Translations under genes and position numbers: made by a program
Shown: in pieces, positions 29,949-30,996 of the stretch
Layout of the letters: the number at the start of each line of letters is the position of its first letter
Position numbering within the stretch: position 1 is the stretch's first letter
Assembly: GCA_964187785.1 (NCBI GenBank)
Contig: OZ076409.1
Span: 30,754,001 to 30,818,000 of the forward strand
Direction: 5' to 3'
Length of the DNA: 64,000 nt
Origin: Amphiscolops sp. MND2022
Lineage: Eukaryota
The notes under the pieces: model-generated
Database searches by the model: none
Told to the model about the DNA's origin: nothing
Seen by the model: only the letters and a program-made list of their open reading frames with translations

Positions 29949-30996
29949 TTACTGTCTTTGGAGGGCTGAGTTCGTGGCTCTCGCCAGGTTAACACCCATC
30001 CGGGCATTCCCTTGTACTCGAAGGAGGCAGTCCCGGATGCCAATCAGCTGCAACATCCTTCGAGCCATTGGGGGGCCGTTGATACCAACACAAGCTGGGG
30101 CGGGGCGGATGATCACCGTTATTCCACCGTTTCGAGCTCGGGCTTCACGCGGGACCGTTCTCGGTTTGTTCAGCGGCGTGTAACCCAGATCTATTTGTCG
30201 CCATCTCAGGGTGGCTTGCGATCGAGCTGCTCGCTCCGCCGCCCAGTCTTTCTTTTTGATGGCCTCGGAATACCCGTAGAACCCATCTCCATCTCCCGCC
30301 ATGGCGATGGCATGGTAACGAACTCTTGGGTTGAGTTGGTTAGTCTTCTTTTTTGAATAGAGGGGTCTCACTTTCAAGGTCTCCTCTTCGATTACCTGAA
30401 TCAGTGAAAGATGATGTTTTTGTTGCAAAAGTATTCAAACTAATGTCTTTTTTGGTAGTTCGAATGTTTTTTTTCAGAGCTCACTCTTCAAATTTTTATT
30501 CAAATTCAATTTTTTTTGCATGAGCAGTTTGGAATAAAGATCACACTTACTCTAATGCCGTCATCATTATCGTTGTCGTTGTCATTATTATCGTGGCCGT
30601 CCTTTTCATTTCCGTTGTCATTCTCCTCCTCCTCGTAGTAATCGCCCTCGTCTTCATCGCTGGAGATGATCTCGGCTACGTCTGCGCCGCCGTTGGGATT
30701 TTCGTACTGGAATATCACAAATTTCGATGAGATTAATCTTCATTTGAATCAAAGGCGGATTTATTTTTTTGCAAGTTGGTCAAACAAGCGTTTTATTGCT
30801 TAATTCTACTTCATTTTGATTTTTCTGTGGAATCTGAGAGAATAAATAAATGCCCAAGTTTTTAAACAGTGCTAACCTCTTCGGATATATCCATTGGGAC
30901 CGATTCTGTGTCGTTCTCTGGTCCGTCCCATGACATCTCAAAGTCGCTGCTGGATGGGGAAGGAGTGGCTTCGAAGCTGCTGGATCTGCTAGACAT
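29949..30996 (-). CDS. RPS2-like: Three-exon Polinton gene: acidic N-terminus plus divergent ribosomal protein uS5 (RPS2-like) domain, 240 aa
   Basis: Exons 30996-30877, 30706-30551 and 30395-29949, all phase 0 with GT-AG introns. Exon 3 aligns by eye to eukaryotic RPS2 (EETLKVRP, GDGDGFYG, GY..KPRTVP, IRPAP..VGI, GIRDC, NLARAT). Confidence 0.82.

Follow-up and report, generated by a model that had tools for sequence, protein, structure and literature searches.

Polinton/Maverick elements and adintoviruses carry accessory genes that are specific to a lineage and lie near the element end, beside core genes for polymerase B, integrase, a packaging ATPase and capsid-like proteins. Viral suppressors of RNA silencing or of double-stranded RNA (dsRNA) sensing can be of the double-stranded RNA-binding domain (dsRBD) type, as are dsRNA-binding proteins of insect and pox viruses. 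Homologues of ribosomal proteins are also kept by virus-like genomes: the abstract of PMC6375957 counts 14 kinds of ribosomal protein across viral genomes, and according to that of PMC11499249, eL40 of giant viruses was the first to be found in any virus of eukaryotes. Such genes are rare in viruses, and very rare in eukaryotic viruses according to an earlier model-made annotation of the DNA studied here (the first-pass annotation). This DNA, hereafter the window, is a stretch of 64,000 nucleotides from Amphiscolops sp. MND2022 (assembly GCA_964187785.1, contig OZ076409.1, positions 30,754,001 to 30,818,000). On its reverse strand, at 29949-30996, lies a gene for a homologue of ribosomal protein uS5 (RPS2), inside the terminal inverted repeats of a Polinton, P2.

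Virus-carried ribosomal-protein homologues and Polinton cargo genes are thus known kinds; the present case is a uS5 descendant as Polinton cargo. It shares with Polinton and adintovirus accessory genes their lineage-specific occurrence and their place. From the virus-encoded ribosomal proteins it differs in that its carrier is a genome-integrated Polinton, that its protein is truncated and has diverged far enough to make a ribosomal role doubtful, and that it derives from uS5, which is not named in the abstracts of PMC6375957 and PMC11499249. A full-text literature search returned no paper linking Polintons with uS5/RPS2 and no mention of an S5 domain among the Polinton papers found, and 'ribosom' is absent from the main text of both the adintovirus paper PMC8502044 and a 2024 paper on Polinton evolution, PMC11161782. 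We put the probability that the gene descends from uS5 and is kept by selection as Polinton cargo at about nine in ten. If so, a uS5 derivative is a long-kept cargo of one Polinton clade, with hundreds of copies in a single genome and relatives elsewhere. It would offer a concrete, testable case of a genetic parasite re-using a ribosomal fold, and it points to a conserved three-part module of uS5-like gene, non-coding repeat array and polymerase gene.

A three-exon gene with a uS5 core

Three short reading frames join through two phase-0 GT-AG introns (Table 1) into 240 stop-free codons; the coordinates proposed in the first-pass annotation were reproduced from the sequence. Splicing is predicted on the basis of conservation. 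The first two exons are acidic and unrelated to canonical uS5, and together form an N-terminal tail of net charge -28 as against +16 for the core encoded by exon 3; alignment to uS5 begins at the dsRBD-like domain. By what we take to be their consensus patterns, the string EIISSDEDE resembles SUMO-interaction and CK2 motifs, and AIKKK, at the start of core helix 50-63, resembles the lysine motif of dsRBDs.

The likeness of exon 3 to uS5 is far beyond chance. Residues 89-148 matched Pfam Ribosomal_S5_C (PF03719) at 3.2e-11 (43 bits against a cut-off of 21.5), and residues 20-65 aligned to the N-domain family Ribosomal_S5 (PF00333) below its cut-off (0.01; 16.3 bits against 27.1). The copy of the gene in c8t, a full-length relative of P2 described below, scored 49.1 bits on S5_C. 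A phmmer search of the PDB returned 154 distinct uS5 sequences with E-values of 0.01 or below, of which the best (4.1e-15) covered query residues 3-142. The best AlphaFold2 model of the core, built on a 14-row alignment, had a mean predicted local distance difference test score (pLDDT) of 91.6 and a predicted template modelling score (pTM) of 0.84, and it included the S5 N-domain fold (strands 3-47, helix 50-63) despite the sub-cut-off Pfam score. When this model was compared with the PDB by Foldseek, the top 50 matches were all ribosomal uS5 chains (48 eukaryotic and two archaeal), with template modelling (TM) scores normalised to the query of 0.82-0.89 and root-mean-square deviations (rmsd) of 1.7-2.9 A. 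The best of them reached 1.2e-13 at TM 0.89, rmsd 1.7 A over 146 columns and 28% identity, and eukaryotic uS5 was matched at TM 0.87-0.89. Both the profile searches and the predicted fold therefore uphold the first-pass reading of the last 148 residues as a uS5 homologue that covers both S5 domains.

The element protein shares with eukaryotic uS5 (RPS2) the two-domain S5 core, the predicted fold and its grouping in trees, but it differs in much else. Its gene is a multi-copy, transposon-borne one with an acidic tail. The archaeal/eukaryotic N-terminal helix, the RGG tail and the C-terminal extension are absent from the window protein; host RPS2 carries this helix and an RGG tail, and an intron follows 'CSTG' in its C-domain. 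None of these is common to the element gene, which has its introns at other positions. The core is about 29% identical to host RPS2, compared with 55-87% for rows labelled canonical eukaryotic uS5 (row labels were assigned by identity to host RPS2, some also through NCBIfam). On the NCBIfam model TIGR01020 (uS5_euk_arch) the element protein scored 64.3 bits against an equivalog cut-off of 181.65; exon 1 of host RPS2 by itself reached 265.5 bits. The bacterial model gave the element protein 32.6 bits. We defined near-invariant columns as those at least 90% conserved in 22 canonical eukaryotic and archaeal rows, and counted them as kept when at least 80% of nine P2-type rows agreed. By this measure 17 of 40 are kept, mostly Gly, Pro and Ala, and 23 are lost or absent, among them eight that belong to the absent N-terminal helix, as well as the tryptophan of the GYWG loop.

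These comparisons bear on whether the element encodes a working ribosomal protein, one that would enter pre-40S particles in place of host uS5, or block its site, and so alter translation, at the mRNA entry channel or in its fidelity, or the 40S supply to the element's advantage. Such a role would suit the retention of both S5 domains and of the uS5 fold over the entire core, which is still basic and keeps its structural Gly/Pro positions and the GD..G..G and PAP..G.G motifs; it would also suit the N-terminal helix still present in sister lineages of the L045 type. Against it stand the sub-equivalog score, the lost invariant residues and the low identity to the host protein, and uS5-like lineages that differ by up to 70% within one genome are hard to fit with one invariant ribosomal RNA site. 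To our knowledge, moreover, an acidic tail of net charge -28 is no feature of small-subunit core proteins. We regard the ribosomal role as unlikely. A stronger form, in which the Polinton clade encodes its own uS5 substitute that enters or caps pre-40S particles and yields element-biased or disabled ribosomes, appears decidedly unlikely; if it held, this would be the first eukaryotic virus-like element to replace a universal core protein of the ribosome, one situated at the mRNA entry channel, and the rapid divergence of its lineages would reflect an arms race with host ribosome quality control.

With respect to origin, a 46-row maximum-likelihood tree united the 15 uS5-like rows (support 94/84) and the 14 canonical eukaryotic uS5 rows (97/94) in a joint clade (98/92) apart from archaeal and bacterial rows. 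Seven long or oddly placed rows (P0029, P0046, P0058, P0071, P0087, P0098 and P0120) were omitted from this tree, and an earlier 53-row quick tree agrees with it. Because the uS5-like rows form a clade with eukaryotic uS5, the gene most probably descends from eukaryotic cytosolic uS5 (RPS2). Its placement as the sister group of every eukaryote sampled may be due to long branches, and no close donor is visible in the tree.

A large family in the host genome and beyond

The genome searched comprises 1.07 Gb. Each search scored at most about 150 candidates, so that all counts are lower bounds and an unlisted neighbour does not amount to absence of the gene. Exon 3 gave at least 152 matches (150 scored of 316 first-look candidates). 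Among the matches listed, 11 other copies are 92-96% identical to the window copy (the ~95% lineage); the next tier lies at 69-73%, followed by tiers at 66, 57-59, 45, 40-42, 37-38 and 29-34%, with many of the matches being open frames. When the Pfam S5 N-domain profile was run against the genome, all 150 scored matches (the best 150 of 347 candidates) exceeded the curated cut-off. The two best (107.6 bits) are the canonical host RPS2 genes on contig 5, and the remainder score 34.5-51.7 bits and are mostly open frames of 140-290 aa. Merging the exon 3 and profile lists gave at least 243 distinct uS5-like loci. The first-pass annotation had missed this scale, which amounts to hundreds of copies over deeply diverged Polinton lineages.

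It had also described the acidic N-terminus as a replacement of the canonical one. This holds for the window gene, in which exons 1 and 2 carry net charges of -9 and -19, and is confined to one sub-lineage. Sister lineages of the L045 type, 40% identical to host RPS2, keep the archaeal/eukaryotic N-terminal helix, and because they do, the acidic two-exon N-terminus is a later change in the P2 sub-lineage. Two copies of the L045 lineage are alike over the entire 3.1 kb compared, a length within which the element terminus was not reached.

The two host RPS2 loci (L041, C5:872621-875815, and L042, C5:66369340-66372534) are near-identical and lie 65 Mb apart on the same contig; a few residues distinguish their first exons, and transposon-like frames lie in the flank of L042.

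Outside this genome, a word-based search of public protein collections found 17 relatives. A representative protein library yielded 206 relatives at E<=1e-3, only 18 of them at E<=1e-10, and most of the weaker ones were ordinary uS5. None of the members examined in ten public protein clusters has a name or accession. At least two relatives evidently come from other genomes, judging by identity: P0003 is at best 72% identical to anything in this genome, and P0021 has no match here at E<=1e-30. No relative was confirmed among IMG/VR viral contigs or JGI metagenome contigs.

The carrier element and its full-length relative

The carrier is a Polinton/Maverick. Terminal inverted repeats enclose the gene, as the first-pass annotation had it, collinear copies exist elsewhere in the genome, and c8t (loci L039 and L040; G000 C8:16078806-16098805), a relative of about 16.8 kb, has polymerase B, integrase and A32-like ATPase genes. 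The uS5-like gene starts 378 bp inside the right terminal repeat and is transcribed inwards. All ten 20-kb contexts compared (six from the ~95% lineage, three at ~73%, and c8t) are collinear with the window element, in the order core genes, 54/108-bp tandem-repeat array, uS5-like gene, terminal repeat, and homology stops at window 31596-31601 in the six contexts with that alignment recovered.

The polymerase gene of c8t encodes C2H2 zinc fingers, an endonuclease-VII-like motif and a family B polymerase that is 30% identical (4e-21) to the Pfam-positive polymerase of a further window element, P3. This gene for a protein-primed family B DNA polymerase is gone from the window copy by deletion. 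The Pox_A32 ATPase of c8t scored 23.4 bits against a cut-off of 22.8; its rve integrase match (3.3e-4) fell below the cut-off, and the integrase is 51-70% identical to that of P1, a neighbouring window element with which c8t is collinear and whose own integrase passes the rve cut-off (46.7 bits versus 32.6). The capsid-like frames of c8t are 60-66% identical to a 360-aa frame of P1 (4617-5699). That frame had no Pfam match at E<=1; its language-model look-alikes are named 'Major capsid protein' or 'Double jelly roll-like domain' (0.97), which we treat as a lead only. c8t is also a mosaic: at the DNA level the window element is matched at 95% by its left arm and at 91-92% by its repeat array, and the polymerase N-terminal part and the uS5-like gene are 75% and 71% protein-identical to the window (~95%) lineage. 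These unequal identities therefore point to recombination between Polinton lineages.

The window copy belongs to a nest of mobile elements, and its element is dead: a long terminal repeat (LTR) retrotransposon has inserted into it and approximately 9.0 kb have been lost at ~28675, in line with the first-pass description of most neighbouring P2 genes as broken. The missing 9.0 kb are present in all six ~95% contexts and, in relatives, contain the capsid-like genes and that for the polymerase (as judged from c8t). The core genes that remain are homologous to c8t genes, and 27456-27663 resembles the integrase region of the neighbouring element. A 6-bp target-site duplication is a feature of Polintons; reading both ends of the window element, which are uncertain by a few bases, revealed no matching flanks. 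The retrotransposon is young, with 217-nt LTRs that are 99% alike and an intact 1615-aa reverse transcriptase/RNase H/integrase frame.

A conserved place beside a converging polymerase gene

Searching with the first 490 residues encoded by the c8t polymerase gene gave at least 87 matches (2599 first-look candidates), whose coordinates we compared with the uS5-like lists from the exon 3 and S5 profile searches. A uS5-like frame lies within 15 kb of at least 62 of the 87, at a median distance of about 6 kb and convergent in all 62 cases; 0.6 such pairs would be expected by chance. A search with a deep member (L045 type) added five neighbours, read by eye from its matches, which brings the count to at least 67 of 87, all convergent. 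A uS5-like neighbour is listed for 8/8 polymerases at >=95% identity, 30/31 at 60-80%, none of 12 at 44% and 24/36 at 41-43%; for the deep lineages, element membership is judged from coordinates and orientation. Divergence runs parallel in the two genes, polymerase identities to c8t of 75, 67 and 42% corresponding to uS5-like identities of 71, 64 and about 30%. Polymerases that best match Pfam PF03175 had a uS5-like neighbour in 1/74 cases within 10-20 kb and in 2/74 within 30 kb, with 1.0 expected by chance, and these Polinton families, like P3, seem to be without the gene. Because synteny is kept at related polymerases and is at chance level at others, the uS5-like gene appears to be old cargo of one large Polinton clade.

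Polymerases of this clade (L039:8029-9498 (-); window 3-2594 (-)) begin with three C2H2-like fingers followed by the endonuclease-VII-like motif, and no cysteine or histidine of the fingers varies among four lineages with identities as low as 32%.

The non-coding tandem-repeat array was found in all ten contexts, and in full-length relatives it separates the uS5-like gene from that for the polymerase. Tandem Repeats Finder delimited it at 29191-29915 (6.8 copies, 91% matches); element copies differ in array length, the range being about 0.7 to about 3.7 kb. A coding array was considered and rejected: mismatches between lineages are distributed 52/44/49 by position modulo 3, and in other copies all six frames contain stops. 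Array DNA is 75-79% identical between lineages whose uS5 coding DNA cannot be aligned by blastn, and its mismatches cluster at unit positions 3-25 and 57-89, so that each 54-bp half unit retains a conserved core. The array may be a set of candidate binding sites.

This arrangement suggests a cofactor in replication or packaging of the element, one that would bind the array or the N-terminal C2H2 fingers of the polymerase. The order of uS5-like gene, array and converging polymerase, kept at no fewer than 67 of the 87 polymerase genes, is what such a cofactor would lead one to expect, as is an array so well conserved between lineages saturated at synonymous sites; the fingers themselves recall known uS5 partners, which bind through C2H2 fingers (review PMC10216425). 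Gene order alone is weak evidence, however, and P3 has a zinc-finger plus endonuclease-VII frame upstream of its polymerase yet no uS5-like gene, so that we consider this role very unlikely.

Selection on the uS5-like gene

Three complete exons are present in 10 of the 11 other copies of the ~95% lineage, L004 being cut at its 5' side. Every one of these ten full copies keeps the donor GT and acceptor TTCCAG of intron 1, the splice sites of both introns are kept, and nine of the ten are stop-free. Exons 1 and 3 are free of insertions and deletions in this lineage, and exon 2 varies from 144 to 165 nt, always in multiples of three. The same three-exon, phase-0 layout, with introns at the same places, recurs in the 72% (L013) and 71% (L039, c8t) lineages, in which the N-terminal motifs PMDIS and DVAEI(I/L)S(S/D)D also survive; tblastn detected exon 2 in L013-L020 and in L039. 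The predicted junctions are thus conserved within the lineage and in two others.

Nonsynonymous (dN) and synonymous (dS) divergence in exon 3 was estimated by the Nei-Gojobori method. Within the ~95% lineage, the window copy and L005 gave dN 0.024 and dS 0.116 (dN/dS 0.21), and L002 and L005 a dN/dS of 0.09. Between lineages dN is 0.16-0.29 and dS is saturated, with ~0.8 of synonymous sites differing. Variable columns of exon 3 in the ~95% lineage fall 9/9/21 on the three codon positions. These patterns indicate that purifying selection acts on the core across element lineages, and a gene kept by selection in many element lineages is therefore probably useful to the element.

Several observations pull the other way on the selection, fold or distribution of the gene. 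The within-lineage pair L013 and L018 gave a dN/dS of 0.65, on only nine differences. In the ~95% lineage, exon 3 has diverged from the window copy by 0.045 substitutions per site and the introns by 0.027-0.053; that exons are no less diverged than introns would follow if many of the differences had accumulated once the copies were in place. That the window copy is itself intact proves little, its element being dead, and the case for selection rests on the family instead. Four of the five AlphaFold models were poor (mean pLDDT 64.9-39.2), and the input alignment had only 14 rows. Finally, the 12 polymerase matches at 44% identity that have no listed neighbour mean either that the gene is not universal in the clade or that the lists missed it.

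Could the gene be a neutral, decaying fragment of a host gene, without function? The window copy does lie in a broken element, and stops occur in some copies (L012, L016, L020 and several lower matches). Such a fragment would not account for the 243 or more loci with their many open frames, for between-lineage dN far below saturated dS, for the conserved splice sites and exon phases, for synteny kept down to 41% polymerase identity or for the relatives P0003 and P0021 in other genomes. We therefore rejected a neutral one-off capture, whose probability we regard as close to negligible, and the first-pass suggestion of an old capture holds.

Possible functions of the protein

As to function, we tentatively favour, at somewhat less than even odds, an accessory protein that acts outside the mature ribosome, either as a binder of structured or double-stranded RNA or as a mimic of free uS5. 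Its acidic tail would mask or tune the basic RNA-binding face of the core, and the element would benefit through blunted RNA-based host control or through disturbance of 40S assembly factors. Blunting of RNA-based control is plausible because convergent transcription over the array would make dsRNA; a dsRBD-like binder encoded there could, we conjecture, protect the element from silencing. The extra-ribosomal role is favoured because docking on 18S ribosomal RNA would demand invariant contacts and not 70% divergence between sister lineages. On the other side, full retention of both S5 domains also fits a ribosome-directed role, and exon 3 had no match to Pfam dsrm at E<=1, the two S5 families being the sole families reported. 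The likeness to dsRBD-type viral suppressors is therefore at most one of working, that of a small, basic RNA-binding fold of dsRBD type in a genetic parasite; membership by sequence is lacking, and dsRNA binding is putative.

A further possibility is a decoy for the extra-ribosomal uS5 partners PRMT3, ZNF277 and PDCD2/PDCD2L, which would divert ribosome-assembly chaperones or side functions. According to the review PMC10216425, the uS5 partners form a conserved network in which PRMT3 and ZNF277, both binding by way of C2H2 zinc fingers, are competitors for a single uS5 site, PDCD2/Tsr4 binds the first ~42 residues of uS5 (FxxxFG motif), and PRMT3 methylates the RG-rich tail. That network, and a globular uS5 core that such partners could recognise, make a decoy conceivable; the segment bound by PDCD2/Tsr4 and the RG-rich tail are both absent here, and fast surface divergence disfavours mimicry of a conserved host protein. 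We judge a decoy improbable overall, and for the window form a PDCD2 decoy in particular is unlikely because the PDCD2 contact described in that review lies on the missing N-terminal extension. Two of the functions offered in the first-pass annotation thus lose ground: the PDCD2 decoy for this reason, and the ribosome modifier through the failed TIGR01020 equivalog cut-off and the loss of canonical invariant residues. The extra-ribosomal RNA-binding or uS5-mimic role remains our preferred, tentative reading.

Features of the window and other elements

Table 1. Coordinates of the uS5-like gene, its carrier element and other features. Positions are those of the window, except for the arrays of uS5-like frames, which are given by genome contig.
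Feature	Position	Strand	Remarks
Exon 1	30996..30877	-	ATG at 30996; 40 codons; net charge -9; conserved motif PMDIS; read from sequence
Intron 1	30876..30707	-	170 bp; GTTAGC..TTCCAG; phase 0
Exon 2	30706..30551	-	52 codons; D/E/N-rich; net charge -19; motif DVAEIISSD(E/D); C-terminal ..IR
Intron 2	30550..30396	-	155 bp; GTAAGT..ATTCAG; phase 0
Exon 3	30395..29949	-	148 codons + TAA (29949-29951); uS5 core, dsRBD-like N-domain + S5 C-domain; net charge +16
5' flank, presumed promoter	30997..31373	-	conserved in ~95% copies; copy alignments run through to 31596-31601
Tandem-repeat array, non-coding	29137..29936		period 108 = 2 x 54 bp; directly 3' of uS5-like gene
Left terminal inverted repeat	17538..17779		c8t context matches from 17544
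Right terminal inverted repeat	31374..31604		94-95% complementary to 17538-17779; other copies end at 31596-31601
LTR retrotransposon inserted in element	19337..24707	+	copies join 19336 to 24705
Junction of ~9.0 kb internal deletion	28674..28677		six ~95% contexts carry 9017-9032 extra bases
Remaining core genes of window copy	25406..28473	+	A32-like packaging ATPase fragment (25406-25804) and integrase region
P3 polymerase B (Pfam-positive)	57271-58314
P3 integrase	53648-54568
P3 A32-like ATPase	52440-53462
P3 double jelly-roll domain	54650-55435
Array of uS5-like frames	C12:37258436-37273657		coordinates only
Array of uS5-like frames	C3:58049773-58058618		coordinates only
Array of uS5-like frames	C6:51322233-51330779		coordinates only
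Array of uS5-like frames	C7:42172019-42188918		coordinates only
Array of uS5-like frames	C1:4406802-4411614		coordinates only

Elsewhere in the genome, partial or whole uS5-like frames occur in large numbers in local arrays, with a spacing of ~0.8-2.7 kb (Table 1). These arrays look like tandem amplification of the gene together with some repeat sequence outside normal elements. The genome carries a very heavy load of Polintons, with 1907 first-look candidates for Pfam polymerase B and, as noted, 2599 for the clade polymerase N-terminal part, and many of the Polinton polymerase candidates have intact frames of 1100-1480 aa.

Within the window, P3 is a second, different Polinton at 46703-61933, with 97% terminal repeats and without a uS5-like gene. 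Inverted repeats of about 1 kb (88-95%) at 34203-35237 and 45692-46702 bound a further element of ~12.5 kb, and the outer ~300 bp of these repeats recur in a third copy at 14866-15166.

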